This document shows positions 1 through 32,935 of a stretch of DNA of 58,987 bases, piece by piece. The notes under the pieces were generated by a model. The model was given only the letters and a program-made list of their open reading frames with translations, was not told where the DNA came from and searched no databases. The stretch lies in the IMG/VR virus record IMGVR_UViG_3300013126_000003, positions 1 through 58,987 of that record. One strand, given 5' to 3'. This DNA is from a virus (Duplodnaviria > Caudoviricetes). A program made the translations under genes and the position numbers. How positions within the stretch are numbered: the stretch's first letter is position 1; the number at the start of each line of letters is the position of its first letter.

Positions 1-123
1 CACCCGAGAGTGAGAGAACTGAATGGCAGAACGGAATTATAGATACGGTTGAGTCTTCATTAAAAGAAACACTCGCTCCCGCACCTGCCCCCACACAAAG
101 TACAGCGTCTAAAGTATTTGCTC
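1..123. repeat. Terminal direct repeat, copy 1 (circular assembly overlap)
   Basis: 1-123 is identical to 58865-58987 (cacccgagag...gtatttgctc), and the giant ORF reads in frame across the join. Confidence 0.97.
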
Positions 124-6100: not shown

Positions 6101-6965
6101 ACGCACGGGCGAGGTAACTTATCCATACGATCCGTATACCGACGCCATTTCTTACTCACCTCTTCCTAAGTCTAAGAAAGGACAACAGACAGACCTAGGT
6201 GATATCTTAACCATATTCGCCGGGTCGTTCACTCCTCTTGCAAAGACAGCAGACTTAGCAATCAAGAAGACATTTGAGGGACCTAAGAAAGAAGCGTCTG
6301 CTATCGAGAGGCAGAAGAACGAGATACTCTTACGATTGCCACTTGAGATACTTGGCAACATGGGTATGATACCTCTTTATAAAGACGTGAGAAGGGTTGT
6401 GATGGGTACAATATACGAGGACCTTCAGAAAGAGCAGCGTGCAAAAACAAAAGCACAGCAGGAGAATGAGTTCCAAAAGAGCAGACTTGGCATCTATCAG
6501 TCCAAGGAAGATATGAAGCGATACGACCCTGACTTGTACGAGAAAACATTCGGGCCATCGTCTCCTTACTACGAGGAGGACGAGCAACATCGCGCTGAAG
6601 AAAGAGCTAAGTCAAAAGCAAAGAGAGAAGCCAAGGACTTTCAGTTTGGTTACGAACAAGACCAAGTGATTGAGAAGGATGAGCTTACCCGAGCAGAGCT
6701 TAAGCGTTATTTCCCTCAAGAGTATGAGAAGAAGTATGGCAAGAGTGCGCCCAACTACAAAGAGATAGAGGCCGAGCGAAAGAAGAGTAAGGAAGAAAGA
6801 CTTAAGAGAAGACAGATGCTTGATAAGCAGTTTGGATACACATCTACCGAGAGAGGTTCTAGCACAAGAGGGACCGGCTCAACTCGTGGTGAGTCAACTA
6901 GAGGAGAAGGCTTAACTAGAGGAGGGTCGAGCACAAGAGGTGGGTCAAGTCTTAGAGGGAGGTGA
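1..6965 (+). CDS. 3' part of a giant (~3396 aa) virion/ejection protein that starts at 55639 and wraps the junction; zincin HExxH motif, MORN-like repeats, long helical C-terminal region
   Basis: ORF 138..6965 is in frame with the open frame 55639..58987. It contains PHEVWH followed by a downstream EE (metallopeptidase-like) and W-N/Y-x-D/N-G repeats. It is the last gene of the virion operon. Confidence 0.85.
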   Translation, partial: PESERTEWQNGIIDTVESSLKETLAPAPAPTQSTASKVFAHVNDAVTELSDAFFDGLKDDEQYTFYTHTIDQVPPEFRNTAMEDKSAAKRSKVLGLPIGKRQGTIYKFTASGLKAKEMRGKIIESMSSKMGTNKAEIFANTMRSVANVFPDLKSVLFDTTEEMIDYANGISPSLGDGILGDEGGIIITKNGKPVVILINNQNSNPTTLPHEVWHGILLKAFGSNELLFAEFREAIKERLIKNGYQNIVDELDRFANNEEYIKSNQQAEEWLVQLGGLLTASGITRENITPKTRALLDDIKSVFNQVAEKLFGYPVFLEDATAEDVLDFMVAISERMAKGQDISSFFRDKESKAAAQGTQVSKQIGAKKKAEYAARLEKERPDIANQGTAQSIVDLVEKFGEENSQDGKGNPKLEKLAFHWIGRGNVKLPEDGYKIVEAEKLATKNKVDPFAFSNPIDIMEKFKGTIKEKPVDPDTVKEFSNKVTIPGTNVTVYNVEDTKEGQAAVRRIADTHWGKNWNGWCLISRTGNDNDLENGWKLWEENYNKTPKKIAFDNGKIIAFQASDTNQEKWWDKRDEPFDGVPIRENIEDGKYKVRSTSESGDVLYTKTYKITPGKEEQWNEDGVRIFEKINDKNGKAVYEQEWNDDASPKSKTYFNLGGANNVLKISFDEGTISDFNTDIHGGFETAENADLENYKIFNTDGSISAELSTEENEDDLTKTITITLFNDDGSVQNQAQKEIKYDESMDVSLGASVKITDENGLVRKKVKYQGSGRAGFYGKVKESSTWYTNGSKKSEVLNNTPQNYSETREWNENGQLVKEDVVPYDEQHFDYDYQKTGDGSGMFEEIQRIAKSYNVDIKGFAPAAVSEFQLEKELRPYGYSAKRSKAEPSGRQRGVYIVDPKGRFYNPFKIKAQRINLDAGNLEENVSSIPGYARMVDEANKVLEKSLRRGNSWDKSMENVMAYVTNSAVYERANDSQREQLVRNVRAEFGKREKSAPSVAKLFDTIKDIKMITMDEVELLKKQLRDLARGAKDAKIAWMSIAKEVAKQIKELVVAGKITNKQAASVITRLAKVNMFSQDSIDKFADYMTKVFNDANYDMKIEKARKKLPRALQNLKKKIGMSTALAPSLVRLFSINPSLIPDKVLERYLELVDMFGSSDTVLELDNVTTVTNDVNEILNAVSDEIDLADELALRLEEFEDRVYDEDGKLEYAKTIAKMLDADVISQEEAEVMRKYKNQILPQAEKSEATKEEVEEEKKGLVRAIKAMTISVELLPTRLERDLAKRLASLLKSDLLMKMSVNQLNNVIKLIDNINNGYAPRYAQILVEKLNSIERAKEDVVPSVETAKPLKFSNFVGKVKASFKGTTAALEMIRRTPLTFIGHIFGDFKTNKMFNGVFGMLASSQAAFDAEMNRVNKKLNAAHDAVAKSHKYSTNKTLESSFRMMAYMLQLEYDSNPGSDKVNTAASFIRATLKHIAKDKAKYKEKDAALLEDILDKYGKDVTDKKGNTVREIDMNKLHKSFNKAELEAIKTIREINDGLTEKAVYTASIIRGENISVLNNYVHLPVLHDYNPNERSTGIQNANAYNNSRRASSKAKTLEERSGDVSPINFDAFASAQRGAKFTLLDFHMTEAIRTARKTITEARAMMEDKGTFKGEKREILNAIDKALEEAIRNVLTNNFITDSFWESVANEISKQGYRAILASAERFTAELASNMSFVLLSDHASFVTGAKYSSVVMSPDAVHIMDNVRSKQTNRLFSGDALTGRLIDTSILGQASGVRSVVSRSAVADVSNIIYNHSLKKFKNGVEVVADTLISTPDKVVMRPVWFGAFANEFKAITGKEVDFKKIAENDEAYMNANKDAISRARDVADTKSMFTGASDNPFMGILKSAVHADDGTVKRAYKNFNNFMTRFTIYEYSVARQGIYAAMGNGSITKAQGVKLIAGVTARMTTYTLLTSLLGSAVLSMFGIEDEEEETKKTFLQKLSQALASSATSLIVGRDFGNAVKAFTNAGVEKINEEFFTALRKADVNERTGEVTYPYDPYTDAISYSPLPKSKKGQQTDLGDILTIFAGSFTPLAKTADLAIKKTFEGPKKEASAIERQKNEILLRLPLEILGNMGMIPLYKDVRRVVMGTIYEDLQKEQRAKTKAQQENEFQKSRLGIYQSKEDMKRYDPDLYEKTFGPSSPYYEEDEQHRAEERAKSKAKREAKDFQFGYEQDQVIEKDELTRAELKRYFPQEYEKKYGKSAPNYKEIEAERKKSKEERLKRRQMLDKQFGYTSTERGSSTRGTGSTRGESTRGEGLTRGGSSTRGGSSLRGR

Positions 6966-7382
6966 GAACCTCACATACTTCAAAGACTTCTGCTTCTCGT
7001 AGTATACCATAAGCTCAACATCGCTGACAGCACCATTGCGGGGAGTTCTACCTCCCTGCCTTATCTGTCCTTCTAGCTTGTCAGGCTTACCGTATATGAT
7101 ACCATCCTCACACGCCCATATGATGACAGGGTTGAGACGTTTGTCTACGAGCTTAATAACCTTATGGGCAGAAATAGGAAGAGGATAAGCCTCTCTCATG
7201 GTTCTTATCCTCCCCTTTACCTCAGCGTACCCTACAACCTTACCGTCTTTATCGAACACTTTGTAGTCGATATCGAATGGGTCTAGCTTCTGATACGACC
7301 CTGAGAATATCTTGACGAAAGTCTCGATAGCCCTCTTCTCTCTTGCTAGGTCTTCTTCGGTTTCAAAAATCATCTTCTTCAA
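6945..7382 (-). CDS. PD-(D/E)xK family nuclease
   Basis: IDY...YAEVKGR restriction-fold motif; last gene of the replication arm. Confidence 0.65.
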   Translation of the reverse strand: MKKMIFETEEDLAREKRAIETFVKIFSGSYQKLDPFDIDYKVFDKDGKVVGYAEVKGRIRTMREAYPLPISAHKVIKLVDKRLNPVIIWACEDGIIYGKPDKLEGQIRQGGRTPRNGAVSDVELMVYYEKQKSLKYVRFSPPSKT

Positions 7383-8054: not shown

Positions 8055-8290
8055 CCCTTGTAAACTTCTGTTTTGATTCCGTGGTTATTTAATTCCTTCA
8101 TGCGATACTTCTGCAGCTCAGACGGTTCTTTACCCGGCTGCTTTACCTCACTGAACAGCACGTTGCTATTCGGAGGTATAGCTAGCAGGTCGGGTATGCC
8201 ATTCTTGTTTGTACGAATGAGCTTTATCACATAGTACCCCTGAGCCTCAAGCTCTTTGATACGCTTACTCTGTATCTGTTGTTCCTTCAT
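8051..8290 (-). CDS. VRR-NUC domain nuclease (Holliday junction resolvase-like)
   Basis: MKEQQIQ...NGIPDLL...FSEVKQPG...SELQ motifs. Confidence 0.85.
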   Translation of the reverse strand: MKEQQIQSKRIKELEAQGYYVIKLIRTNKNGIPDLLAIPPNSNVLFSEVKQPGKEPSELQKYRMKELNNHGIKTEVYKG

Positions 8291-8549
8291 TGTACGCTAC
8301 TCTTAATCTGAACATGTGATTGAGTTGGTTCGCTTGCTTGAGAGCGGTGCTATTTGGCACGCGCCTGTTCTTTCTCAAATACTTTGCAGTCCATTCAATG
8401 AATGTATCCTGTTGTTTCTTAGTCATGGTATATAGGTCATACCAATTATCCTTTCGATCCTTGATATCGTTATACCCAAGGTCTATCTCAGCGATGATAA
8501 ACATCACATCAATAATCTCCTTTACCATATCAGCATTCGTCTTTCTCAT
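8265..8549 (-). CDS. Hypothetical protein
   Basis: 94 aa, ATG start, downstream of promoter at 8605-8612. Confidence 0.7.
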   Translation of the reverse strand: MRKTNADMVKEIIDVMFIIAEIDLGYNDIKDRKDNWYDLYTMTKKQQDTFIEWTAKYLRKNRRVPNSTALKQANQLNHMFRLRVAYNEGTTDTE

Positions 8550-15135: not shown

Positions 15136-15879
15136 TTAATACAGTAGTTCTGCAATGAAGTAGTCATCAATACTCTCGGTGGGGTTGGGCCCGAAGAACT
15201 TATTAAAAACCTCAATAGCCTTCTCGACCTTAGCCTCACCACTCTTAATGAAATCCTCAGTAGGACGGAACACACCGAGTTGATGTGTCGTCTTGTCAGC
15301 CACAAAGAATACGAGTGGCTTACCAAACAACTGCTGATAGATGTAACATTGAGAGTCGTAATTGTAACTCTTCGCTGAGTACTTAAACTTCTGAATATCT
15401 CCTGTGGTCTTGAGGTCGATTATCATTTCATCTGTAATGATATCCGCCTTCCCCTTCCACATCATGCCTTTAATTTCTCCAACGGCAGGTTCCTCATATA
15501 GGTTGCCGTCTTTGTATATCTCATCAAAGAAGTAGATGTTACTCTTGATGGTGCTAACAAGGGCGTCAATCGCATCCTTCTCTTCCTTTAACATGCAGAA
15601 TGGTATGCTGTTCTCACGAACAAAGTCCTTGTAGATGTTGGTATTACGACTGCTTGCCTCAACAAACTTAGTTAGTACCGCCTTCTCCGGTTCAATAAGT
15701 GATTGGTGAAAGTACCTACCCTCAGCAAAACTCTTATTGTTAGGTCGGCTTACGCCGAACAACTTTGGGTTGGACAGCAACGTGCCGATGTCTGAGTTGG
15801 ATAGGTATTGCTTACCCACCCCTCCGTAATACTCAGAGTCATCTCTGAGTGTGTCAATGACTGATTGGTTATTGTGCAT
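15136..15879 (-). CDS. RecE/exodeoxyribonuclease VIII-like PDDEXK exonuclease
   Basis: YLSNSDI, GRYFH, WKGKADII, IIDLKTT and YDSQCYIYQ motifs; adjacent to the annealing protein. Start moved to ATG 15879. Confidence 0.85.
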   Translation of the reverse strand: MHNNQSVIDTLRDDSEYYGGVGKQYLSNSDIGTLLSNPKLFGVSRPNNKSFAEGRYFHQSLIEPEKAVLTKFVEASSRNTNIYKDFVRENSIPFCMLKEEKDAIDALVSTIKSNIYFFDEIYKDGNLYEEPAVGEIKGMMWKGKADIITDEMIIDLKTTGDIQKFKYSAKSYNYDSQCYIYQQLFGKPLVFFVADKTTHQLGVFRPTEDFIKSGEAKVEKAIEVFNKFFGPNPTESIDDYFIAELLY

Positions 15880-16525
15880 TGCCTTCCTCCTTGAATAGGT
15901 TAGCAATCTCTTTCTTTACTGCCGCACTCATCTTGTACTTGCGGTTAAGACGAACGCCAATCTCCTCTAACCCCAAGTCTTTGTTGGCCTCGATGTATTT
16001 AATCACCTTGTCCCAAGTCTCAGAGCCTTTCTTTAGCTCGATCAATTGAGCAGTTCCCGCCGCCACCGCCGGAGCAGCCGCTGTTTTTGCGGGCGTCTCT
16101 GTCTCGGGCAAGTCTTCTCCTGCATAGATGTAGATGCCAAGTCCAAACATAGCTAGGTTCTTCACTAAGCAACGCATGATTGTCTTGTTGATATCAAACA
16201 TGGTAGCTGCATCAACACTCTTCTCACCGTACTTAGTCATGTACGTGTAAGGCTCGCTCTTCATTGCTCGGTTAGCGCCGTCCATTACAGGAAGCCACAT
16301 CTTCAATGTCTCTCCCTCAATGGTCACCTGAGTGTGACACATGTATCCGAGTGATGGGTCGTACTCAGTATTGAATACCTCATACGTGGCGTTTGGATAT
16401 GCCTTCTTCACCTCGCTCCAAGCCCAAGCCCAAGACAGGTAGGTCATCCCGCTATTAGCTTTCTTTTCAACGTGGTCGTTAACATTGATGGCCGATAGCC
16501 TTTCAAAAACACTTTGCTTTTCCAT
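15869..16525 (-). CDS. Sak3-like single-strand annealing protein (DUF1071)
   Basis: INVNDHVEKK, YLSWAWAW, MWLPVMD, DINKTIMRCLVKNLAMFGLGIYIYAGEDLP. Confidence 0.9.
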   Translation of the reverse strand: MEKQSVFERLSAINVNDHVEKKANSGMTYLSWAWAWSEVKKAYPNATYEVFNTEYDPSLGYMCHTQVTIEGETLKMWLPVMDGANRAMKSEPYTYMTKYGEKSVDAATMFDINKTIMRCLVKNLAMFGLGIYIYAGEDLPETETPAKTAAAPAVAAGTAQLIELKKGSETWDKVIKYIEANKDLGLEEIGVRLNRKYKMSAAVKKEIANLFKEEGNAQ

Positions 16526-18285: not shown

Positions 18286-18623
18286 AGCTTGAATTTTTGG
18301 AAGGTTTGTTCAAAGGTGTTGGTGATTGATTCTTTGTCAACTTTAACATCACCAATATGTCCTGCAAAAGTCCATTTTAGAGAATTGTTTTTAGTAGTTA
18401 GATTAGAACCTTCTCCATAAGCAAACACTTTCTCGGCAGACGTAGCAAGAGCTTCTTTGATTACCTTCTCCGTGTACTCATTAAGTTGCTCAGGTGTGAA
18501 GAAGTAGCCTTCTTTTTCTACTACTCCCGTTATTGTTTCTAACCAATGAGAATGGTCATTACATACAACTTTTTCTTGTTCACCATTTACAGGTAAATAA
18601 ACTTCTCGTTTGATTGGTGTCAT
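18282..18623 (-). CDS. Hypothetical protein
   Basis: 113 aa; C-terminus resembles the neighbouring gene. Confidence 0.7.
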   Translation of the reverse strand: MTPIKREVYLPVNGEQEKVVCNDHSHWLETITGVVEKEGYFFTPEQLNEYTEKVIKEALATSAEKVFAYGEGSNLTTKNNSLKWTFAGHIGDVKVDKESITNTFEQTFQKFKL

Positions 18624-18625
18624 AG

Positions 18626-18871
18626 TTACTTGATATTGGTTAGTGGATAAGCGTTGAGTATAGAGTTATCATCGACACCCCATATAGGTCTAAATGAACC
18701 CTCTGAAATTTCTACATGGTCTATTGGCGTTATCTCAGCCTTATCACTTGCTGCTTTAAGTGCTGCTTCAACGTGTAGTTTAGCAAATTCAATCAGCCAT
18801 TCATCAACTGATGTGCTTTGAAACCTTTGTGCATTATTGGATAAAAATTGTTTTGCTGTTGGTATACTCAT
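18626..18871 (-). CDS. Hypothetical Bacteroidota-phage protein
   Basis: IEFAKLHVEAALKAAS...SILNAYPLTNIK. Confidence 0.75.
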   Translation of the reverse strand: MSIPTAKQFLSNNAQRFQSTSVDEWLIEFAKLHVEAALKAASDKAEITPIDHVEISEGSFRPIWGVDDNSILNAYPLTNIK

Positions 18872-19239
18872 AGTTGTTTTATAGTTAGTTCCTCACCTGT
18901 TAGAGCGAAGTAAAGGTTTTGAAGTTGGTGAACGTATTTGATTGAAATAATTGTTTCTAAATTATTGCTTTTTAGATGCACAAAATCATCATCATTATAG
19001 CTGACTAAAAGAAACAAATCAGTATCTAAAACCAAATCATCGCCATCCTTCTCAAACCCAAACTTCACCAACCATTCTTCTGTTAGTGGGATGGGTTTAA
19101 TCAAGTCATATTTGGCATGGATAAAATTTCCTTGCATCGTTTTTAGAGTACACACACCATCTGACATTAAATTCTCAATAGTGTTTAAGCAACCGTCATT
19201 TGAAACTAAGTTACCTATACGAAGTTCATTTGCTTTCAT
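18868..19239 (-). CDS. Conserved Bacteroidota-phage protein (possibly YopX-like)
   Basis: MKANELRIGN...PIPLTEEWLVKFGF...YVHQLQNLYFALTGEEL. Confidence 0.75.
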   Translation of the reverse strand: MKANELRIGNLVSNDGCLNTIENLMSDGVCTLKTMQGNFIHAKYDLIKPIPLTEEWLVKFGFEKDGDDLVLDTDLFLLVSYNDDDFVHLKSNNLETIISIKYVHQLQNLYFALTGEELTIKQL

Positions 19240-19616
19240 AGTTCAAAAAGGTATTTACCACAAGCTACTACTTGTCCTTGTGAGTTGGTTGTTGTTTGAG
19301 GTTCTTCTATTTTATTCATACCATCATCAGTTATTCCTATTACTTCAATTTCAAAGTCGAAGTGAGTAGGAAAAGTAAATACACCTTCTTCTAGTGGTGG
19401 AAGCAAAGGCACTCCTTCAAGGATTGGTGAGTTGTTGAGTGGCAAATGAAATAGTATCTCAAAACACTCATTGAGATATGAATTTTCTACCTCAGAAAAT
19501 CGTATCACATTTCGGTATCTCATCGAATAAACATTGAGATTGCTTGGCATATCTACTAGATGCTCTTTTTCTACAACAAGTAGATATTCGTTTGTTTTGA
19601 TTAGTTCTTTTTTCAT
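19236..19616 (-). CDS. Hypothetical protein
   Basis: 126 aa; starts 15 nt after a palindrome copy. Confidence 0.7.
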   Translation of the reverse strand: MKKELIKTNEYLLVVEKEHLVDMPSNLNVYSMRYRNVIRFSEVENSYLNECFEILFHLPLNNSPILEGVPLLPPLEEGVFTFPTHFDFEIEVIGITDDGMNKIEEPQTTTNSQGQVVACGKYLFEL

Positions 19617-19631
19617 GTCGGAAGTTTTAGA

Positions 19632-19651
19632 GAGTACGGTTGACCGTACTC
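19632..19651. repeat. 20-bp palindromic repeat, copy 1
   Basis: GAGTACGGTTGACCGTACTC. Confidence 0.95.
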
Positions 19652-19656
19652 TTTGG

Positions 19657-20097
19657 TTAAAGTTGTTTGCGTTCTACCTTGTATATCTCATACCCTCTGC
19701 TCTTAAGGAACTCGATAGCGTCACGCTCACTCATGGTGCTAGGTTCAGGTATGAATTGTGCATTGGCTTCCTCAGCCGCAGCCACCACAGACGCCTTGTC
19801 CATCTCCTCTCTCAGCTTGTTGCGCTTTTTGCGCTGCTCGGCATACCTCTTGACGCGCTCTTTGTGTGAGGCAATAATTCGATCGACCATGTCCGATGTT
19901 GGCATAGACACGATCCAATTACACACGTCGGTGGTTACCGATGCAACGTACCCCTCATGTCTTAAGGTGGTGATGATAGATGCATCGACCTTGTGGTTCT
20001 TGATTATTGATGATACAACAAAGGTCTTTTGATGAGCGCAGTCGTCGATGAATGCGCTGTACTTCTTGCGGGTCTTGTCTTTAATTGTGTTTACCAT
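19657..20097 (-). CDS. Hypothetical protein
   Basis: 146 aa with a basic coiled segment. Confidence 0.7.
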   Translation of the reverse strand: MVNTIKDKTRKKYSAFIDDCAHQKTFVVSSIIKNHKVDASIITTLRHEGYVASVTTDVCNWIVSMPTSDMVDRIIASHKERVKRYAEQRKKRNKLREEMDKASVVAAAEEANAQFIPEPSTMSERDAIEFLKSRGYEIYKVERKQL

Positions 20098-20585
20098 GAC
20101 TGAAAGATTTGTGGTTTATTTAATATGTGTGGTTCAAGTTCGTCGACAGCACTTTCGATAAAGTCGTACTCAGACTCATACTCCTCGCCATTAAATACAT
20201 ACATACCGGTGTCCTCGTTGTACCTAAAGTTTATACAGCTGCCGTCGTACATCTTGATACTAGCAGGGCGTATCGGATTGAACACAGCCTTGCCATATAG
20301 CCCCATGCCTGACTCATCAAACCGATGCTCATACTCAACCTTAAAGCGTCTGCCGATAAGCATGATAGTAGATAGAGCAGGTGACCACTTGGATAAGAAT
20401 TGATAGTCACCTTTGTCCCATCCTTGTATATCGAAAAGATAGGGTGCATTGTACCTTTCACATGCCAACCACTCAGGGCGAACCCCCTCTGTAGATAGCA
20501 TCATCTTGCTGAACAGCGCATCGACCTTGTCTAGCGCAGAGGGACTTCCCTTGAAAGTCACATTGTTGTTGCACCAATTAGGCAT
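20091..20585 (-). CDS. YubB/DUF1281 ferredoxin-like domain protein
   Basis: MPNWCNNNVTFKG N-terminus, FLSKWSP, FDESGMGLYG. Confidence 0.75.
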   Translation of the reverse strand: MPNWCNNNVTFKGSPSALDKVDALFSKMMLSTEGVRPEWLACERYNAPYLFDIQGWDKGDYQFLSKWSPALSTIMLIGRRFKVEYEHRFDESGMGLYGKAVFNPIRPASIKMYDGSCINFRYNEDTGMYVFNGEEYESEYDFIESAVDELEPHILNKPQIFQSW

Positions 20586-21012
20586 TTCTTTGCGTGTTAT
20601 TGTCGTTCAACATTTGCTTGATGTCATTGAATAATCGCTCGTCATCGAAACGAACTGCATCAAAAAAGTCATCGCCGTCAATCTCAATAGTGGCCGTAAC
20701 ATCCAACCGCCCCGACCTTGTCTCGCAAGTATCGTAGTGGACGGTGGCAAACTCTCCATATGTACCTCCGCAGTTCAATGAGTGTACCCTAGCATGGTTC
20801 ATAGCTATGGTTACGATGCGCTTAATGACGTCGTCAGGTATCACATCTACCGTGAGTACTTGCTCATCGGGCAGTACGCTGACGCTGTTAGATAGGTGGT
20901 TAATAATACCAAGCAAGTCATCGCTAGTGAATATCGAGCCCGTAAAAATTGATTGAGGTCTTTGAATATTATCCTTAACCTCGTTAATGATTTGTAATAC
21001 CTGTGCTTTCAT
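20578..21012 (-). CDS. Hypothetical protein
   Basis: 144 aa, operon-coupled. Confidence 0.7.
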   Translation of the reverse strand: MKAQVLQIINEVKDNIQRPQSIFTGSIFTSDDLLGIINHLSNSVSVLPDEQVLTVDVIPDDVIKRIVTIAMNHARVHSLNCGGTYGEFATVHYDTCETRSGRLDVTATIEIDGDDFFDAVRFDDERLFNDIKQMLNDNNTQRNA

Positions 21013-21301
21013 TTCTGTTTATTCTAATTGGTTCCATTCTGTGATACACCTCTTGCCAATGATTGTGTCCTTGGCTTGTGCGAGACCATATGATTCTCGC
21101 ATCTACAACGTCTCTCCAATCCCGTAGCATTTTTACTCCGCCATTAAAGAAGACTTGCTCTTCTAAAAATCTTTCTCTCAAGATTATAGCTGATGCCTTA
21201 GAGAGTCCTTGGTCTTCACGGACTTTGATTACGAAAGACCTTTTCCACTCCCGCCACTCTTCAGGTGTCATCCATGCTTCAAAAAATTCATATCGTGTCA
21301 T
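20984..21301 (-). CDS. Hypothetical Trp-rich protein
   Basis: WSRTSQGHNHWQEV motif. Confidence 0.7.
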   Translation of the reverse strand: MTRYEFFEAWMTPEEWREWKRSFVIKVREDQGLSKASAIILRERFLEEQVFFNGGVKMLRDWRDVVDARIIWSRTSQGHNHWQEVYHRMEPIRINRNESTGITNH

Positions 21302-21330
21302 GTGGGTAGTGTTAAATGGTGAGAGAAAAA

Positions 21331-21350
21331 GAGTACGGTTGACCGTACTC
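21331..21350. repeat. 20-bp palindromic repeat, copy 2
   Basis: GAGTACGGTTGACCGTACTC; overlaps the amidoligase stop codon by 1 nt. Confidence 0.95.
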
Positions 21351-22603
21351 TATTTGATATCAGCAGATTCGTCAGTAAGGTCAACGTCATTGTACAATGA
21401 GCTATACTCAACGAACAACTCAACCTTACGCATCATCTTCTCCTTGCCTACCACCGACTCAATGTGCTTGTGTAACTCAGACGTTGAGTCGCAAAGCATA
21501 CGCAGTACATCGCGCTCACTTGCACCGAAGTTTCGCATGATGATACGCAACAGCTCAACACGCCACAATAAGTTCTTCACGTTCTTCACGGCAGGGAAGA
21601 TGCGGAACTCCAAGGTATCGCCACGAACGTAGATGCTCGAGCGTTTGTCTCGGTTAAGGTACTCATGCTTCTTCTTAGCGAACGAATAGCCCACGTCAAG
21701 ACGCTTGACGTACAAAGAGTAAAGCACAGGGAAAAATCCCGACACGCCCTCGAATATCTCCTCGACCGTGTACTTACTTGATGCAACGTGGATGTGACCA
21801 CCGCATCGGTTGCTGAACGTGCCGTTGATGTGTTGCTTAAGCAACTCGCTACTCTCAATGTCATCTTCGTGTAGCGTACCGAACAGGTCATACACCGGAC
21901 TGATGAGCTCATACCCGCTGTCGCTATCCAAACTAGCATCTGTCTCTTTAGTCCAACCATGCGGTAGGTCTCTAAAGCTACAGCTTATTCTCGCATCGAG
22001 GTCTTCCTTCTCAACTTCAAACCCCATAGTAAACTCAGTACCCTCGGGTGTTCTCCAACCACGCCCACCACCACGGTGATACGAAGCAAGATGGTCGTCA
22101 GACGCAGAGACTGATGACCGTGATGGATAATACGGAGGGTTTGGCGAAGTTTCTTCATCGTCATCGTCCTCGTCATACGGCGCGTCGTCGCAGTGACGCC
22201 ACTCGTCGACCGAGTCATAGTAATACACGTCGCGGTGATTGGCAACACGCTCACTGATGTAGTACATATCATTCGTCTCACAACGAACATAGTCCTCATC
22301 ATCGGTTATGAAATACCCCTCATCGCCTCCGCCGTTGAGGACACCCCATGTGCAGTCATCTCGGTAGGCATACCCACTACCCTCGACCCACACAATATCT
22401 CGAGACTCCTCCTCATGCTCATGGAATAAATCACCGCAGATTGTTGCATGAATCTCGTCTGAGTCGTCATCTCTGTGGCAGACCTCGCCCGATGCTAACA
22501 CTTGAATATCAGAGTCGCCGTTACGATACCACTCACCTGAGTGAATACCGATTGTGAATTGAGAGCACTCATCCATGTAAGGAAGAACTAATTTTTGTGA
22601 CAT
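21350..22603 (-). CDS. Putative amidoligase (glutamine synthetase-like COOH-NH2 ligase) with an acidic Cys/His-containing N-terminal region
   Basis: MGFEVEKE, ETDASL, GYELISP, CGGHIHV and TLEFRIF motifs. Confidence 0.82.
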   Translation of the reverse strand: MSQKLVLPYMDECSQFTIGIHSGEWYRNGDSDIQVLASGEVCHRDDDSDEIHATICGDLFHEHEEESRDIVWVEGSGYAYRDDCTWGVLNGGGDEGYFITDDEDYVRCETNDMYYISERVANHRDVYYYDSVDEWRHCDDAPYDEDDDDEETSPNPPYYPSRSSVSASDDHLASYHRGGGRGWRTPEGTEFTMGFEVEKEDLDARISCSFRDLPHGWTKETDASLDSDSGYELISPVYDLFGTLHEDDIESSELLKQHINGTFSNRCGGHIHVASSKYTVEEIFEGVSGFFPVLYSLYVKRLDVGYSFAKKKHEYLNRDKRSSIYVRGDTLEFRIFPAVKNVKNLLWRVELLRIIMRNFGASERDVLRMLCDSTSELHKHIESVVGKEKMMRKVELFVEYSSLYNDVDLTDESADIK

Positions 22604-22633
22604 ATGAATTGAATTAAAGTGGTTGAAAATTTA

Positions 22634-22653
22634 GAGTACGGTTGACCGTACTT
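22634..22653. repeat. 20-bp palindromic repeat, copy 3
   Basis: GAGTACGGTTGACCGTACTT; abuts the GATase stop codon. Confidence 0.95.
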
Positions 22654-23529
22654 TTAGTTGGCGACTCCATCGTACATTGCATCACAACATACTCTGCACA
22701 GGGGTGCTTGATACGTCTCATCGTATACACACAGCTTGTCCTCAAGACACGATTCGCATCGTTCGTAATTCGTGTCACGAGAATAGTTGAAGTCGGGTTT
22801 ATCAAAGGGGTTCCCGCTCTCCTCTCCGTAGTCCGTGAAGTCATCCGACTCGGTAAAATCCTCACGCTTGTCATACGTTCGGGTCTTGGGATTCCACTTA
22901 TACTTCCTCTCCCAATCGGTATCTTCCCAATTGTCATCTCTGCTATATCTAAAGCTCGGCATAGACCTGCCACCAACGTCAAGGTATCGGCCAATTTTAT
23001 AGGTGGTATTGCTGAACCAACAGCCCATGTCCCACACACCTGCCTCCTCGTTAATGATGTACGCATCATTGTCTGTGTTGAGGAATAGCAGTTTACTGCC
23101 ACCGATGTATCCCGACACGAGCTCATAGATGGCGTCGTTATGTATCCAATCAACAGGTAGCTTCTTGAGTACAAGTTCGTTGAACAAATTGGTATCGCTC
23201 TTGTCCTTGTCTCGACCGATAGAGGATATCATGCCGTTATGCACGAAGCCCCACTTGTCATTGGTAATAAATGGATGGCAGTTCTCAAGATTGATACGGC
23301 CATGTGTCCCGATACGGAAGTGGATGACCACCTGACTCTCCGCATGGTCTTTGCGCACACTTAGGTAGTGGTTGTAGAACTTGTCAAAGTTCTTCATCTC
23401 CTTGTGGGCGGTTAGCTTCTTGTCTTTTAGGTACAAGAGTCCCGCTCCGTCCTTGTTGTTGTCCCAACACGTCTTGAGTATGCTTTTCTCAAGCGTCACG
23501 TCGTTAGGGTTTAGAATGGCAATGCACAT
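22654..23529 (-). CDS. Class II (Ntn) glutamine amidotransferase
   Basis: N-terminal Cys (MCIAI), HFRIGTHG, NCHPF, VHNGMI, SDT; C-terminal CxxC...CxxC. Confidence 0.9.
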   Translation of the reverse strand: MCIAILNPNDVTLEKSILKTCWDNNKDGAGLLYLKDKKLTAHKEMKNFDKFYNHYLSVRKDHAESQVVIHFRIGTHGRINLENCHPFITNDKWGFVHNGMISSIGRDKDKSDTNLFNELVLKKLPVDWIHNDAIYELVSGYIGGSKLLFLNTDNDAYIINEEAGVWDMGCWFSNTTYKIGRYLDVGGRSMPSFRYSRDDNWEDTDWERKYKWNPKTRTYDKREDFTESDDFTDYGEESGNPFDKPDFNYSRDTNYERCESCLEDKLCVYDETYQAPLCRVCCDAMYDGVAN

Positions 23530-23573
23530 AGTGAAATAGATTTAAGTTTAACACGATTTTTTAATTGACTCTG

Positions 23574-23605
23574 CAAAGATACGACATTACTTTGCAAAAA
23601 GCAAA
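23574..23605 (-). promoter_or_regulatory. Bacteroidota sigma-A promoter for the GATase-amidoligase genes
   Basis: TTTG-N20-TATCTTTG on the minus strand. Confidence 0.8.
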
Positions 23606-23610
23606 TAAAG

Positions 23611-23883
23611 CTACTTTAGAACTTTCTTCGCTTTGGCAAGTAGGCTGTCTATATCCCCGCCTTTTAGTGCGCTTTTGATTTGCGATCGTAGCACATCTGA
23701 CACGACAGAGGTAAGGTCTGCATCGCACGGCTTCCCGTCTATTTGATACTCACCACTTGGCTCATCCAATTGCAAGTCACTCACTTTTATCCACCTACCT
23801 TCACGGTCTTTCTTGTACACCTCTGCTCCATAGGCAAAGGCTATAATAAGCGGTAGCATTTTCTTACACTCGTGTCTTGTCAT
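23611..23883 (-). CDS. Hypothetical protein
   Basis: MTRHECKKMLPLIIAFAYG; 90 aa. Confidence 0.7.
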   Translation of the reverse strand: MTRHECKKMLPLIIAFAYGAEVYKKDREGRWIKVSDLQLDEPSGEYQIDGKPCDADLTSVVSDVLRSQIKSALKGGDIDSLLAKAKKVLK

Positions 23884-23907
23884 TTGTTTAGGTATTGGTT
23901 AATTGAA

Positions 23908-23927
23908 AAGTATGGTTGACCGTACTC
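23908..23927. repeat. 20-bp palindromic repeat, copy 4
   Basis: AAGTATGGTTGACCGTACTC; overlaps the upstream stop codon by 1 nt. Confidence 0.9.
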
Positions 23928-24148
23928 TAGTTATTGTTGTTCTTGCTCTCAAGCGTGTTGACAACAGCAAGGCATAGCGACACTCCCGCACCGACAATGA
24001 ATACACCGACGGAAAAGAAGTTTTGCGCCACCTCAAGATAGTTAACCCAAAAGGTTAAACTGATTACGGCGCAAAGGAATGAATAGGTGAGTGCAAATAG
24101 CACTGCATAGGTGCTAAGCACCACGAAAGGTTTAAGGGTTTTGTGCAT
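23927..24148 (-). CDS. Small membrane protein (2 TM)
   Basis: Two hydrophobic helices. Confidence 0.7.
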   Translation of the reverse strand: MHKTLKPFVVLSTYAVLFALTYSFLCAVISLTFWVNYLEVAQNFFSVGVFIVGAGVSLCLAVVNTLESKNNNN

Positions 24149-24152
24149 ATAA

Positions 24153-24392
24153 TTATGGTTTTAGTTGAATCATTGAACAGCTTTGACCTTTGTAGATAAG
24201 CACCACAGTGCTATCGTCAATGGTATACTTGTATAGGCTACCTCCTCGCTCTTCATGCAGTAGCTCCATGACTACCCTACTCTTGACTACGTCAGGTTCT
24301 TTGGATGTGCAATCAGTTGAGATTGTCTCGATACCCCAAATCATTACCCCTATGGTTAGGACGATGTCCCAAGACGGCATAATTTTTCTCAT
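24153..24392 (-). CDS. Hypothetical protein with an N-terminal hydrophobic segment
   Basis: 79 aa. Confidence 0.6.
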   Translation of the reverse strand: MRKIMPSWDIVLTIGVMIWGIETISTDCTSKEPDVVKSRVVMELLHEERGGSLYKYTIDDSTVVLIYKGQSCSMIQLKP

Positions 24393-24416
24393 GTTGATAT
24401 TGAATTTAAGTTTTAC

Positions 24417-24707
24417 TTAGCAGTCCCCATTGCAATAGCCTCGCTCCTCACAATCCCCGTATCCCATCTCGCACTTGAACTCGTTGTGGGTGTAGTTGAG
24501 TTCAAAGTCTAGTTCTTGTTGCACCTCTATATCAATTTGCTCTTGCCAAAACTTAGGTAGGTCGGTGTATTTAACCACGCTCTCATTGCCCTTGCAGTCA
24601 TCAATAACCTCTTGTTTGTCGGTATAGCGAACTATCTTCCCGCTCCACTCAAATTGTAGGACGTGGTCATTCGCCTCATCGTAAAGTACATATATGTTAT
24701 CGTTCAT
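24417..24707 (-). CDS. Hypothetical protein with a C-terminal 4-Cys cluster
   Basis: Ends CEMGYGDCEERGYCNGDC. Confidence 0.7.
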   Translation of the reverse strand: MNDNIYVLYDEANDHVLQFEWSGKIVRYTDKQEVIDDCKGNESVVKYTDLPKFWQEQIDIEVQQELDFELNYTHNEFKCEMGYGDCEERGYCNGDC

Positions 24708-24722
24708 GTTGTGAAAGGTTTT

Positions 24723-24742
24723 GAGTATGGTTGACCGTACTC
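24723..24742. repeat. 20-bp palindromic repeat, copy 5
   Basis: GAGTATGGTTGACCGTACTC. Confidence 0.92.
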
Positions 24743-24785
24743 TTGGTTAGTGCCGTCATACTATACTTTGGTTGGTAAGAAAGTG

Positions 24786-24817
24786 CAAAGATACAACAAA
24801 GTTATATCGAATGCAAA
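24786..24817 (-). promoter_or_regulatory. Bacteroidota sigma-A promoter
   Basis: TTTG-N20-TATCTTTG; a second TAACTTTG lies at 24797-24804. Confidence 0.8.
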
Positions 24818-24844
24818 TAAGTTCTTTGCAACAATTGTAAACGA

Positions 24845-25042
24845 CTACCACTCAAGTTCACCGCACTCACATAGCATGTCGTTGTACTTGAATACGCCTG
24901 TCTCTAGGTAGGCCATGACTTCGCCCTTACAAGCCGACTCATAGACCTTACCTTCGGTAGTCCTAAGCGTATAGAGGCCGTCATCGGTTGGTTGAATAGT
25001 GGTGTTCACTAGTAAGTGAATGAGGATGTACATTGTGTTCAT
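24845..25042 (-). CDS. Hypothetical protein
   Basis: 65 aa, flanked by palindrome copies. Confidence 0.65.
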   Translation of the reverse strand: MNTMYILIHLLVNTTIQPTDDGLYTLRTTEGKVYESACKGEVMAYLETGVFKYNDMLCECGELEW

Positions 25043-25068
25043 ATATACGAGGGGTTTTGATTAGCGAA

Positions 25069-25088
25069 GAGTACGGTTGACCGTACTT
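25069..25088. repeat. 20-bp palindromic repeat, copy 6
   Basis: GAGTACGGTTGACCGTACTT. Confidence 0.95.
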
Positions 25089-25123
25089 TTGAAATTGGGT
25101 TAGTATTAGTGTTACACACTAAT

Positions 25124-25161
25124 AAAAACAAAATACGCCCACCATATAGGTGAGCGCATCT
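25124..25161 (-). terminator. Intrinsic terminator after the first early gene
   Basis: Minus strand reads AGATGCGCTCACC-TATAT-GGTGGGCGTATTT then TGTTTTT. Confidence 0.65.
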
Positions 25162-25185
25162 TGCTTCGAGGGGTGAATTGGTATC

Positions 25186-25953
25186 TTAAGATACCATATC
25201 CATAGTCACTTCTTCTTCGATACCGCCTTGTAGGATATCAAGCATAGCTTGTTTTTTAGCGTTTTTCTTCGCCTTATCCACAGAGGCATTCGCCTTCACA
25301 TCCACCTTAGCTTGTGTCTCAGCTTTCAGCTGCTTAAGCGACTTTTGCAAGTAAGCAATTGCTTTAGCAATATCATCCTTGGTAGCGGTTGTTTTCACCT
25401 CACCTTTGTCGGTTATCCTTAAGGATACATTGTTCATCTTCATGGCTTCGCCATTAAACGTGAATGTAACGATAGGCTTCGCCTTTGTATCCACGGCAAC
25501 CTCATTAGCTTCGCTAACGCCACCCTCTTCGTTACCCTCATCCTCATTTAATCCTAAAGGATTAGCGGTTGAATTGTCGTGTTTCTTGATGAATTTCTCG
25601 AAATTCTCAAGAGAATAACTTGCCGCACCTTGTAACGCATCGCATTGTGAGACGAACTCTTCGGCAATTTGTGGCAAACGCTCTGTAGCTTTAGCTACAC
25701 GAATGTAAAGGCCGTATTGCTGTTTGCTAAGGCCGTAGGCCATTTTCACCACCTCTTCCTGTGTGAGTGCGGTGTCTTTCAAGAAGGTTTTACCTTCTTC
25801 GCTTTTAAGCCATTTGTAACCTTTCAAAAGAAAGGTAGCCATTTCCACGGACTTGGCGAATGACTTGCCTTGTGCGTTTTTCACGGCGTTTGCTAGTGTG
25901 TTCACTTGAGCGGTGTGCAACATCTTGTGTGCAAGAGACGAAAGATTTTTCAT
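25186..25953 (-). CDS. First gene of the early arm, hypothetical 255 aa protein
   Basis: Long ORF with its own promoter and terminator; acidic linker and Lys/Ala-rich C-terminus. Confidence 0.8.
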   Translation of the reverse strand: MKNLSSLAHKMLHTAQVNTLANAVKNAQGKSFAKSVEMATFLLKGYKWLKSEEGKTFLKDTALTQEEVVKMAYGLSKQQYGLYIRVAKATERLPQIAEEFVSQCDALQGAASYSLENFEKFIKKHDNSTANPLGLNEDEGNEEGGVSEANEVAVDTKAKPIVTFTFNGEAMKMNNVSLRITDKGEVKTTATKDDIAKAIAYLQKSLKQLKAETQAKVDVKANASVDKAKKNAKKQAMLDILQGGIEEEVTMDMVS

Positions 25954-26001
25954 ATGATAAAAGGTGTTAAATTTTGTCGTATCATTTGTTCAACGACTTT
26001 G

Positions 26002-26034
26002 CAATACTACGACAATTCTCTACACAAAGTCAAA
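26002..26034 (-). promoter_or_regulatory. Probable first early promoter
   Basis: TTTG-N21-TAGTATTG (one mismatch to TAnnTTTG). Confidence 0.55.
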
Positions 26035-26113
26035 TTTTTTTTTTGCACCTTCCAAAAACCTCAGTGTTTATGCGGGTTTCAGGGCTGATTTTTTTTTGGC
26101 TAGGTAACGAAAT

Positions 26114-26133
26114 GAGTATGGTTGGCCGTACTC
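26114..26133. repeat. 20-bp palindromic repeat, copy 7
   Basis: GAGTATGGTTGGCCGTACTC. Confidence 0.88.
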
Positions 26134-26150
26134 TGACAAGGTCGGAAAGC

Positions 26151-26400
26151 CTCGTGATGCACTCGTAATGTGCTCATGATGAGCGTGATGCGAGGGTGAT
26201 GCGGGCTATGCGCGAGCGATGTGCGCGTGTGTGCGCGCGGATCGCGTGGGTATCGGGCGACGTGGTGCGGTGCGTGGCCATGGGCTAGGGGAAAAACGCC
26301 AAAAATCCTCGGGCGCGCGGGCGATTTGCACACCCCCCTGCTTGTTACACATGCGTTTTCGGCGCGGGGGTGACCGTCGCAGAGCGGGGTATAGTCCCAA
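26151..26400. repeat. GC-rich non-coding region with phased degenerate GTGATG repeats (candidate packaging/terminus region)
   Basis: ATG cores at 26157, 26168, 26179, 26188, 26199, 26208 and 26219; lies between the divergent arms. Confidence 0.55.
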
Positions 26401-29171: not shown

Positions 29172-29412
29172 GTATATCATCGTGACCAATCTCGAGGAGG
29201 AGGTCAAGACAGACGCAGGGCTAATCCTTTCAGGTGAGGACCTAAATCAATTCAGATACAAAAAGGGCGTGGTCGTTGAGCCGGGCACTGAGGTGACCAC
29301 TATTTTTAAGGACGACAAGATTTACTACGACAAGACGCACAGCTTTACAATGATGATTGGGGGAGGGCATTATACTGTTCTTCGCGAAGCCGACGTTGTT
29401 GTTGTCGAATAG
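29155..29412 (+). CDS. groES: Phage co-chaperonin GroES
   Basis: MKPIGKYII...KTDAGLIL...GVVVEPG...LREADVVVV. Confidence 0.9.
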   Translation: MKPIGKYIIVTNLEEEVKTDAGLILSGEDLNQFRYKKGVVVEPGTEVTTIFKDDKIYYDKTHSFTMMIGGGHYTVLREADVVVVE

Positions 29413-29836
29413 ACTCGTTTCTAATTTGTATCTGCTCAACGTGACGCTTGTCTACACGGCGTTGTGTCTTCTTGCGATACAAGGGTGAGTTCTGTTCTTG
29501 TATAAACCCACCCTCTAGTTGTTTGTACAATGCACTCACAAGTACTGAGCCTTTGCGTGATATCTGATAGCGCGCTGCGCGTGGACCCTTTGTCTTCTTA
29601 AAGATATCCACCCACCCATTCTCAACAAGTTTCTTAAGTCGTATTCGATTGAGCTTTAATGACCGGTCAAATGCCAAGAACGTCTTCATGGTGAAGTAGG
29701 GCTCGGAGTACAAGAAGATAATCATATCAAGATCGGAGCTCGTCAGGTTGTACTTCACCTTAGTGTAGTGATAGATGGTGCGCCAATACTTGAGGTAGTC
29801 ATGCTTTCTCTTCGGTGGTTTTTCTCTTGGGATCAT
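29345..29836 (-). CDS. Winged helix-turn-helix (MarR-like) putative regulator
   Basis: LTSSDLDMIIFLY...LKKLVENGWVDI...ARYQISRKG. Start set at ATG 29836, downstream of its promoter. Confidence 0.7.
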   Translation of the reverse strand: MIPREKPPKRKHDYLKYWRTIYHYTKVKYNLTSSDLDMIIFLYSEPYFTMKTFLAFDRSLKLNRIRLKKLVENGWVDIFKKTKGPRAARYQISRKGSVLVSALYKQLEGGFIQEQNSPLYRKKTQRRVDKRHVEQIQIRNESIRQQQRRLREEQYNALPQSSL

Positions 29837-32416: not shown

Positions 32417-32935
32417 ATGACTGATAAAATTTCCCTAGACAGAATCGAACTACTTCATCCTGCAATCAAGGATAAGGTACGCAAAGCATTTCTTAATGCA
32501 GGAGAAAGACTCACCGGCCGGGCAACTCTTCGTCTAGCCTACACGTTACGCACGTTCAAAGAGCAAGACAATCTATTTGCACTTGGAAGAACGGTGATTA
32601 AAGACGCCAAAGGCAATAAGGTTCGTATTGTTACCAACTCAAAAGGCGGTCAGTCGTTCCATAACTACGGGCTTGCTTGGGACATCGTCCTAATCATTGA
32701 TGGTAAGGAGGCTTCTTGGGATACTCTCAAAGATTTTGATGGGGATCGCGTGGCAGATTGGATGGAGGTGGTAGATGAGTTCAAAAAGATTGGCGCCGAG
32801 TGGGGAGGCGATTGGAAAGGTTCGCTTGGCGATAAGCCTCATTTCCAATTTTCTTTCGGATACACTTGGAAGCAGTTGCTCGAGAAGCACAACAACGAGG
32901 ACTTCCTCCTTAATTCCACCTATGTAAAACTTTAA
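32417..32935 (+). CDS. Endolysin, M15 family (L-Ala-D-Glu peptidase-like)
   Basis: LRTFKEQ, VTNSKGGQSFHNYGLAWD, WGGDW and DKPHFQ. Confidence 0.9.
   Translation: MTDKISLDRIELLHPAIKDKVRKAFLNAGERLTGRATLRLAYTLRTFKEQDNLFALGRTVIKDAKGNKVRIVTNSKGGQSFHNYGLAWDIVLIIDGKEASWDTLKDFDGDRVADWMEVVDEFKKIGAEWGGDWKGSLGDKPHFQFSFGYTWKQLLEKHNNEDFLLNSTYVKL

Follow-up and report, generated by a model that had tools for sequence, protein, structure and literature searches.

What do seven near-identical 20-bp palindromes do between the early genes of a bacteriophage? The question is raised by the IMG/VR virus record IMGVR_UViG_3300013126_000003, whose entire length of 58987 b, rated 100% complete, is the window of this analysis. 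The record represents a GroEL-encoding podophage of Bacteroidota from lake water; its genes between about 7.4 and 26.0 kb lie on the - strand and form a leftward early arm, the remaining genes lie on the + strand, and the palindromes are restricted to the first 6.5 kb of the early arm. Most likely, as far as comparison with sister phages can tell, they belong to a clade-wide device for punctuating the early operons of ~60-kb GroEL-encoding Bacteroidota podophages. For the window copies themselves we tentatively favour, while giving it somewhat less than an even chance, a role as intercistronic RNA hairpins that would stabilise or insulate the early mRNAs.

Seven palindromes between the early genes

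A scan of the + strand with the 20-mer GAGTACGGTTGACCGTACTC, allowing up to 2 mismatches, found seven copies (at 19632, 21331, 22634, 23908, 24723, 25069 and 26114), where 0.01 would be expected by chance (mean of 100 shuffles). Five of the seven match on the - strand too, the motif being palindromic, and the complete record holds no further copy elsewhere; the feature is real and non-random. All seven have TG at their centre on the + strand, that is, CA in the sense of the genes. A preliminary description made from the sequence alone had reported seven palindromes at these places, in a single orientation and confined to the early arm, with six of them 15-30 nt before a start codon and four at or within 5 nt of the previous stop; our scans reproduced each of these statements. 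Listed in the direction of the early genes, the copies are:

26114..26133, - strand: copy 1, 2 mismatches, sense sequence GAGTACGGCCAACCATACTC; upstream of the first early promoter and beside direct repeats of the CGCATCAC type; sense RNA fold -8.0 kcal/mol
25069..25088, - strand: copy 2, 1 mismatch; 26 nt before the ATG of open reading frame (ORF) 24845-25042 and just 3' of a strong terminator; -9.2 kcal/mol
24723..24742, - strand: copy 3, 1 mismatch; 15 nt before the ATG of ORF 24417-24707 and ~45 nt 3' of a TAnnTTTG box; -7.1 kcal/mol
23908..23927, - strand: copy 4, 2 mismatches; overlaps the stop of ORF 23927-24148, 24 nt before ORF 23611-23883; -5.1 kcal/mol
22634..22653, - strand: copy 5, 1 mismatch; abuts the stop of the GATase-like ORF 22654-23529, 30 nt before ORF 21350-22603; -9.2 kcal/mol
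21331..21350, - strand: copy 6, exact; overlaps the stop of ORF 21350-22603, 29 nt before ORF 20984-21301; the sole copy with a T run after it; -13.9 kcal/mol
19632..19651, - strand: copy 7, exact; 5 nt after the stop of ORF 19657-20097, 15 nt before ORF 19236-19616; -13.7 kcal/mol

Six copies thus stand 15, 29, 30, 24, 15 and 26 nt before the next ATG in the gene (-) sense, and those at 19632, 21331, 22634 and 23908 touch the preceding stop codon or lie at most 5 nt from it. The seventh, at 26114, is situated in a divergent non-coding region, ~160 nt ahead of the first early gene, where it overlaps only a dubious 77-aa GTG ORF. The sense RNA of all seven forms a hairpin (-5.1 to -13.9 kcal/mol) whose 9-bp arms fold with a 4-nt loop, and this loop reads T/C-CAA in the gene sense in every copy. 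A GC-rich stem followed directly by a U tract, the mark of an intrinsic terminator, was not found at the palindromes: a T-rich tail follows only one or two of the seven, and a terminator-like scan of the - strand flagged two (21331, and 22634 weakly).

Equivalent palindromes in related phages

Relatives were collected by a GroEL search, which led to 493 related IMG/VR loci; 80 of these (given here with L numbers) were fetched and the uncultured phage MW202828.1 was added. Scanning the genome and its relatives for the motif gave a divided answer: the exact degenerate motif of the window is absent from IMG/VR, but many of the fetched loci carry a repeated palindrome of their own in the same arm, to the left of GroEL. 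The arms of these palindromes differ by lineage and are near-invariant within a genome. The commonest palindrome is GTGTCTTCAAAGACAC; others are GTCTGTTCAAACAGAC, GAGTACACTCAAGTGTACTC, GTGTCGTAACGACAC, CGTATTTCAAATACG, GTGCACTCGAGTGCAC and ATTTGTCC-N8-GGACAAAT, and examples of arms and centre are GTGTCTT-CA-AAGACAC, GTGTCGT-TA-ACGACAC, GTCTGTT-CA-AACAGAC and GTGCACT-CG-AGTGCAC. MW202828.1, which has the same architecture as the window, holds 15 copies (at most 2 mismatches) of GTGTCGTTAACGACAC, all at 43.7-55.2 kb and none in the late arm, so that the repeats are limited to the early or middle arm in two complete genomes. Over 143 unique copies, arm pairing amounts to 985 Watson-Crick pairs, with 15 mismatches, mostly at the innermost pair, 12 A-C and 5 G-U. 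Our scans found no repeated palindrome family in some loci (e.g. L024 and L048) or in the first 36.5 kb of Flavobacterium phage elemoA. Early-arm nucleotide searches against GenBank phages gave no match, the 417-aa early protein of the window retrieved no related loci, and a permissive scan for CA-centred imperfect hairpins gave too much noise to be of use.

A single intergenic slot is occupied by the palindrome at 23908 in the window and by a different palindrome at L010:7063. The presence of different palindromes in one orthologous slot, each homogeneous within its genome, implies that the copies of a genome evolve in concert. The copy in the divergent control region is likewise kept in the window and in relatives, with short direct repeats next to it (window ~26134-26210, CGCATCAC-like; L082 ~8150-8330, TGTCACC three times and TTCGTCTA-like; L008:479-632, ACGCGACG-like). 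Lying between the two arms, these repeats may represent an origin, a packaging signal or a control region.

The 16-mer GTGTCTTCAAAGACAC also occurs within genes. It stands in frame (VSSKT) on the + strand of a late-arm DUF5872 gene (L013:13128-13143, L034:14087, L064:13645, L068:12628, L075:14120 and more than 25 other loci), a gene of which the window has no homologue, and inside the GroEL coding sequence (L082:10007, L055:10653, and L049 and L050, both at 10653).

Mimicry of clustered regularly interspaced short palindromic repeats (CRISPR) or of the repetitive extragenic palindromic (REP) elements of a host was considered and rejected: the palindrome family of the window (F2) is absent from 185,579 species genomes, and family F1 gave only scattered single matches among those listed. 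The F1 palindrome is present five times in a phage-sized contig, WTJX01000555.1 (L103, L132; 56458 b), binned with a Cytophagales metagenome-assembled genome, which is a possible hint to the host of the clade.

Hammerhead ribozymes beside the relatives' palindromes

Hammerhead cores are visible in the sequence that follows many of the palindromes; a type III hammerhead is defined by CUGANGA and GAAA cores, three stems and an NUH cleavage site. A search with Rfam at an E-value threshold revealed seven type III hammerheads (RF00008) in L064, L055 and L082, directly after palindromes. They match over the full length of the model with 35-45 bits (E 1e-6 to 8e-4), below the gathering score of 48.5, at which nothing passes. 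We built a covariance model, R1, from 27 sequences chosen by a pairing filter; its seed stems are fully paired with many double changes, the 100% pairing being partly by construction. R1 found 56 matches in 1.42 Mb, all on the sense strand of the early genes; these are unannotated type III hammerheads, among them:

L064:6311-6362, 4502-4552 and 7064-7114, - strand: hammerheads found with R1, with others in L055, L082, L034, L043 and more
L009:19085-19137 (= NC_055852.1), - strand: hammerhead of a cultured phage, Flavobacterium phage vB_FspP_elemoA_7-9A, shortly before its first early gene

For 45 of the 55 strong ribozyme matches a family palindrome ends at most ~30 nt upstream, mostly 0-7 nt, and of the 125 palindromes counted in loci with ribozymes, 45 are followed by one. 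Where the family palindrome is missing (ten ribozymes), its position is mostly taken by a different strong hairpin, though the ribozyme of elemoA has no hairpin there. Around 31 unique ribozyme-linked palindromes, the five flanking pairs, read on the sense strand, comprise 99 Watson-Crick, 37 G-U, 3 A-C and 16 mismatched combinations, and the loop is TCAA in 25 of 33 ribozyme-linked copies and TTGA in none. Flank pairing so rich in G-U on the sense strand is sensible only for RNA or for a hairpin of the sense strand. The fusion to sense-strand hammerheads and the covarying, G-U-rich flanks together argue that in the sister phages the palindrome is transcribed and folds as RNA. This agrees with an earlier proposal that long transcripts of phages are divided into gene-length mRNAs by hammerheads flanking the genes (Perreault et al. 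2011, PMC3088659).

RNA hairpin or protein-binding site?

In the window, the signals that would start and end transcription of the early arm stand apart from the palindromes, which is in keeping with RNA hairpins:

26004..26033, - strand: promoter-like site before the first early gene, TTGACT, 18 nt spacer, TAGTAT (sigma-70-like); a consensus match only
24786..24793, - strand: Bacteroidota-type -7 box TATCTTTG, a TAnnTTTG match
23574..23581, - strand: Bacteroidota-type -7 box TATCTTTG, before ORF 22654-23529
25128..25164, - strand: intrinsic terminator after the first early gene, a 16-bp stem and then a U-rich tail; -25.6 kcal/mol, z -6.95

TAnnTTTG boxes, which we take to be the Bacteroidota -7 promoter motif, are frequent in the genome; within 19.6-26.1 kb they are found only at 24804/24793 and 23581, and only copy 24723 has one within ~50 nt. 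Together with the sigma-70-like pair at 26033-26004, the boxes at 24793 and 23581 (-) agree with the separate host promoters of the preliminary description. The terminator at 25128-25164 was missed by the simple terminator scan and shows how differently an ordinary terminator is built from the palindromes; it is preceded by an A-tract and followed by a U-tract, is of the bidirectional type, and separates gene 1 from the rest of the arm. From the promoter positions, four copies would be intercistronic, copy 24723 probably lies in a 5' untranslated region, and copy 26114 may not be transcribed.

The course of events that we envisage is as follows. Host RNA polymerase would transcribe the early arm (- strand) from a few host-type promoters into polycistronic RNAs, in which each palindrome would fold into a stem of 7-9 bp with a YCAA loop, situated directly after a stop codon, with the next start 15-30 nt further on. 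In sister phages the type III hammerhead right after the hairpin would cleave itself and leave the upstream message with the hairpin ~10 nt from its 3' end, in a position to serve as an exonuclease barrier, the cistrons being separated at the same time. The window phage would have lost the ribozyme or never had one, its hairpins acting alone as stability or insulation elements, with any cutting left to host RNases. A sequence-specific reader, presumably a protein, probably recognises the element as well, since the arms are near-invariant within a genome and different between lineages; such a protein, reading the element as DNA or as RNA, is likely whether the palindromes work as RNA hairpins or as operators. 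We keep our confidence in RNA hairpins short of an even chance because the RNA role is carried over from relatives.

A considerable number of observations weigh against it. In the window no hammerhead was found at the gathering score, at E<=10 within 7000-30000 or with R1, and a ribozyme would not fit into the 15-30 nt that separate the palindromes from the start codons. Other Rfam ribozymes are absent from the window too, and R1 has no match in MW202828.1, L010, L012 or L045. As already noted, copy 26114 lies upstream of the first recognisable promoter. The + strand hairpin is more stable than the sense hairpin in all seven copies, and A-C mismatches weaken five of the seven sense hairpins to -5 to -9 kcal/mol. 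Among the 143 unique copies the central 2-4 bases vary while the arms stay, and fixed arms around a free centre are typical of sites bound by dimeric DNA-binding proteins, not of hairpins that serve by their structure alone. The relatives' bare copies, those without a ribozyme (n=69), which are of the type seen in the window, have unpaired flanks (103 Watson-Crick of 345 pairs) and no preferred orientation of the loop (TCAA 28, TTGA 22; 13 and 7 for those at most 40 nt from a start codon); they are present in ribozyme-bearing genomes as well, for instance 17-20 nt before start codons in L082, L043 and L064. Finally, some copies are intragenic, in the DUF5872 gene, in GroEL (4 loci) and in several annotated coding sequences of MW202828.1, and in the DUF5872 copy nearby codons vary synonymously with the motif unchanged in more than 30 loci.

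Several of these points would be expected of the main rival, an array of double-stranded DNA operators. The palindromes would then be sites of a phage-specific dimeric DNA-binding protein (for shut-off, roadblock or autoregulation), and the RNA hairpin a by-product co-opted next to ribozymes. Such an array would account for near-invariant arms around a varying centre, for bare copies with random orientation and unpaired flanks, and for intragenic copies conserved at the nucleotide level; it would also suit a palindrome of each lineage's own, with different palindromes in the same slot of different genomes, and a copy amid direct repeats in the divergent control region of the window and its relatives. 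A candidate binder is encoded in 80 of 80 loci:

29345-29836, - strand: winged-helix-like protein of ~160 aa, encoded against the late arm next to GroEL and GroES-like genes; in all 80 loci and called 'repressor' in MW202828.1

This protein shows no obvious covariation with the palindrome family, however: those of the window (F2) and of L011 (F9) are alike though the palindromes differ, and it is also present in the loci L024 and L048, in which the scans found no repeated palindrome family. The fold of the first early protein matched nothing, and no binder was found. Operators moreover leave unexplained the tight spacing (mostly 0-7 nt) and fixed orientation of the palindromes relative to the hammerheads, the sense-strand G-U covariation of the flanks, and the replacement of the palindrome by unrelated hairpins upstream of some ribozymes. 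The operator array put forward in the preliminary description is a live rival, on account of the invariant arms, the lineage-specific palindromes and the copy upstream of the first promoter, though we consider it less likely than the RNA hairpin.

Strand asymmetry and hairpins in DNA

The preliminary description had argued from the arm substitutions that the palindromes do not fold in mRNA. Its count is right: of the seven arm changes in the window, six produce a G-T pair on the + strand and an A-C mismatch in the mRNA. The argument built on it does not stand. In sister phages, palindromes of this kind are fused to sense-strand hammerheads and extended by pairing on the mRNA strand. Position 6 accounts for three of the changes in the window and position 20 for two, with an identical base each time, which leaves ~4 independent events at most; outside the window the palindrome cores have 6 A-C against 4 G-U, so that the asymmetry is not repeated; and in the ribozyme-linked flanks it is reversed (37 G-U against 3 A-C on the sense strand). 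All six A-C changes are G-to-A on the A-rich (purine-rich) sense strand. The bias is small, non-independent between copies and fits compositional drift, and the better folding of the + strand in the window copies counts as weak evidence.

The + strand being the template of the early genes, its more stable hairpins with their G-T pairs recall the promoters of phage N4, where hairpins of the template DNA strand are read by an injected polymerase; here the polymerase would be carried by the 3396-aa virion protein, whose gene is the last of the late arm, as in N4. Further points of likeness to the N4 system, as given in the available part of PMC4496689, are short inverted repeats confined to the first-expressed end of the genome and the giant size of the virion protein, and the ORF 24845-25042, which follows the strong terminator, has a palindrome but no recognisable host promoter. 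Nevertheless we regard N4-type promoters as highly improbable. No polymerase was detected: the giant ORF and other large proteins gave no RNA polymerase family in Pfam or PHROGs, phmmer against PDB and a 12-sequence profile against PDB had no match, and the giant protein has neither a DxDxD motif nor a pattern of the T7-type motif B. The genome has a single DFDGD motif, in an ORF that resembles a Peptidase_M15 endolysin (32417-32935, +), and the relatives of the giant protein show a mixture of effector domains and LPD-type leads, as is usual for polyvalent virion proteins. The geometry differs as well: in the promoter of the N4 virion RNA polymerase, according to the same source (PMC4496689), a short stem surrounds a GC-rich heptamer that has its centre at -11, and the bases at -11, -10 and -8 are specific, whereas the window has at least 7 copies with 9-bp arms and a 4-nt loop, and the 2-4 nt centre is variable in relatives. 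Host-type promoters are present in the arm, and the relatives appear to transcribe through the palindrome, with a ribozyme downstream and pairing in the sense strand. An N4-like system was our first guess; it was dropped once family, profile and motif searches for a polymerase had all proved negative.

A single-stranded DNA signal read on the + strand, such as a priming site, a nicking site or a pause during injection, could serve replication or DNA entry. The common orientation and the G-T bias of the window copies, their restriction to one arm and the position of the first copy beside direct repeats that could be an origin or end signal are what it would predict. This too we hold to be a very slim prospect: the relatives' bare copies are of mixed orientation, copies outside the window lack the strand bias, the joining of the element to ribozymes of the sense strand goes unexplained, and no nickase or HUH protein is present among the ~40 window proteins scanned, which are a part of its ORFs.

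Recombination at the palindromes?

Short palindromes might also serve as homology for the shuffling of gene modules, in the manner of integrons or of the promoter early stem-loops (PeSL) of T4-type phages, aided by a Sak annealing protein and an exonuclease. The genome indeed encodes a Sak-type single-strand annealing protein (15869-16525) and a PDDEXK exonuclease-like protein (15136-15906), as the preliminary description had claimed under the names Sak3 and RecE. The early arm is hypervariable, 18.0-23.7 kb of the window having no counterpart in the closest locus L010; the copies are homogeneous within a genome; some well-supported homology breakpoints fall at the far edge of a palindrome-ribozyme module; and PeSL motifs offer a precedent in T4-type phages (PMC2839356 and PMC4122927, as far as the available parts of these sources go). 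What the palindromes share with PeSL, according to the same sources, is a repeated, conserved stem-loop motif between small accessory early genes in hyperplastic regions. The composite of early promoter and stem-loop that marks PeSL is not seen here, as five of the seven copies in the window stand without a neighbouring promoter box, and in the relatives breakpoints are no more frequent at the motif than gene ends are. Numerically, 12-21% of the breakpoints in 11 related loci lie at most 25 nt from a palindrome-ribozyme module; the value is 18% for gene ends and 6% for random sites. A first count placed 20 of 403 breakpoints at most 30 nt from a palindrome, the values for comparison being 4% (random sites) and 15% (gene ends). 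The integron-like cassette model of the preliminary description is thus not specifically supported, breakpoints lying near modules no more often than gene ends do.

The deletions from repeat to repeat that the cassette model implies did not turn up either, since no repeat-to-repeat joint appears in contigs of the three lake-water DNA runs listed with this phage; one 3.5-kb joint (21015 to 24530) was seen, away from the repeats and supported in one contig by a side of 22 nt. One of the three runs may be the source of the record, and no RNA run is listed with the phage. Nor can 16-20 bp of homology account for the differing palindromes at orthologous slots. The ~40 scanned window proteins include no integron integrase; integron attC sites have an imperfect long stem with extrahelical bases, and the present sites are near-perfect palindromes of 20 bp. 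The window and L010 are too diverged for the ends of insertions or deletions to be placed. On balance, shuffling through the palindromes is in our estimation very unlikely.

The phage and its early genes

The record has a 123-b terminal overlap, and the genome is circular or permuted with 58864 b. Its terminase and portal match those of the Flavobacterium 'elemo', Cellulophaga, Tenacibaculum and Maribacter phages and, with 75-78% identity, those of the uncultured MW202828.1; among its relatives are phages that infect Flavobacterium and Cellulophaga. Besides GroEL, the phage encodes a BT4734-type primase-helicase and an SNF2-like helicase. No Shine-Dalgarno site was found at any ORF, and the leaders are A-rich. 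The 3396-aa ORF runs across the record junction (55639-58864 joined to 1-6965, +). Its 86 relatives share conserved blocks at aa 200-1500 and aa 1900-3300 and vary in their effector domains (ART-PolyVal, Zeta toxin, MORN, LRR, methyltransferase); among the named atlas clusters LPD38 and LPD39 come nearest, and the product looks like a polyvalent virion protein by its domain make-up. The two PDB searches found no solved homologue of it, and tblastn with its C-terminal part gave no match. The genes of the punctuated region are:

25186..25953, - strand: first early gene, 255 aa, without known family; homologues at the same position in 20 related loci
19236..25042, - strand: punctuated early genes, 12 ORFs of 65-417 aa; GATase_4-like, weakly amidoligase-like and DUF1281_C-like, the rest without family
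22654-23529, - strand: GATase_4-like ORF, 291 aa (family match)
21350-22603, - strand: amidoligase-like ORF, 417 aa (weak family match)
20091-20585, - strand: DUF1281_C-like ORF (family match)

A model of the first early protein (predicted local distance difference test, pLDDT, 75) had no Foldseek match in PDB at E<=0.001 and no profile match. The neighbouring GATase_4-like and amidoligase-like ORFs (21350-23529) have a counterpart pair in MW202828.1 and may form a host-takeover or modification module of the peptide-ligase type; that the 417-aa and 291-aa ORFs are RNA polymerase (RNAP) II was considered and rejected, as they are amidoligase-like and GATase-like. At 18300-19250 the contigs of the DNA run that is probably the source are split into short alternative pieces of 85-95% likeness (contig breaks at 18.3-19.2 kb), which suggests strain-level variation in the early arm.

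Known systems and significance

Hairpins that punctuate an early transcript are familiar from phage T7, whose polycistronic early RNA is cut at RNase III sites, after which a 3' hairpin stabilises the upstream message. The palindromes resemble these sites in punctuating an early polycistronic transcript; the T7 sites, in contrast, are long, irregular and non-identical stems cut by a host enzyme, whereas here the palindromes are perfect, of 7-9 bp and identical within a genome, and in the relatives of this phage the cutting would be done by a ribozyme. Bacterial REP elements are genome-specific, near-identical palindromes behind the stop codons of operons that stabilise the upstream mRNA, and the present palindromes are like them in being near-identical, genome-specific and placed just after stops. 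REP elements, however, belong to chromosomes, where they occur in their hundreds, and are linked to a REP-associated tyrosine transposase (RAYT); the window has 7 copies, and its scanned proteins include no member of the Y1 (RAYT) transposase family. The phage and prophage hammerheads of PMC3088659, in the part of that source available, are matched by the relatives, which have several sense-strand hammerheads between the genes of a transcription unit; the window phage differs in having no ribozyme, and the relatives in having an invariant, lineage-specific palindrome, of which that part of the source makes no mention, fused upstream of theirs. Full-text searches yielded no published description of palindrome-hammerhead modules in these phages, though the supplementary hammerhead lists of PMC3088659 might include some of the loci. 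To speak of an undescribed system, as the preliminary description did, is thus too strong for the window alone but fair for the modules of lineage-specific palindrome and hammerhead in the wider group.

Intergenic hairpins and ribozymes of phages are known one by one; here they appear as the standard early-gene separator of a whole clade, often welded to a hammerhead, and the clade comprises abundant phages of freshwater and marine Bacteroidota. For annotation, dozens of unannotated hammerheads are flagged, one of them in a cultured Flavobacterium phage. Synthetic biology builds insulators from ribozymes and hairpins, of which the palindrome modules would be the natural counterpart. A bolder reading, which we think rather improbable, is that the palindromes are recognition sites of a phage-encoded factor that reads the stem and, together with the hammerheads, form a 'punctuation code' by which early messages are cut, capped and timed; in the ribozyme-less members a protein endoribonuclease or binder would replace the ribozyme. 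If this were true, the palindrome would be a natural, programmable cistron separator co-evolving with its reader. The puzzle set by these phages is a stem sequence frozen within each genome and replaced wholesale between lineages, and finding the reader of the stem would add a new RNA- or DNA-recognition module. The group also offers a tractable case of how polycistronic phage messages are handled in hosts that do without Shine-Dalgarno sites.

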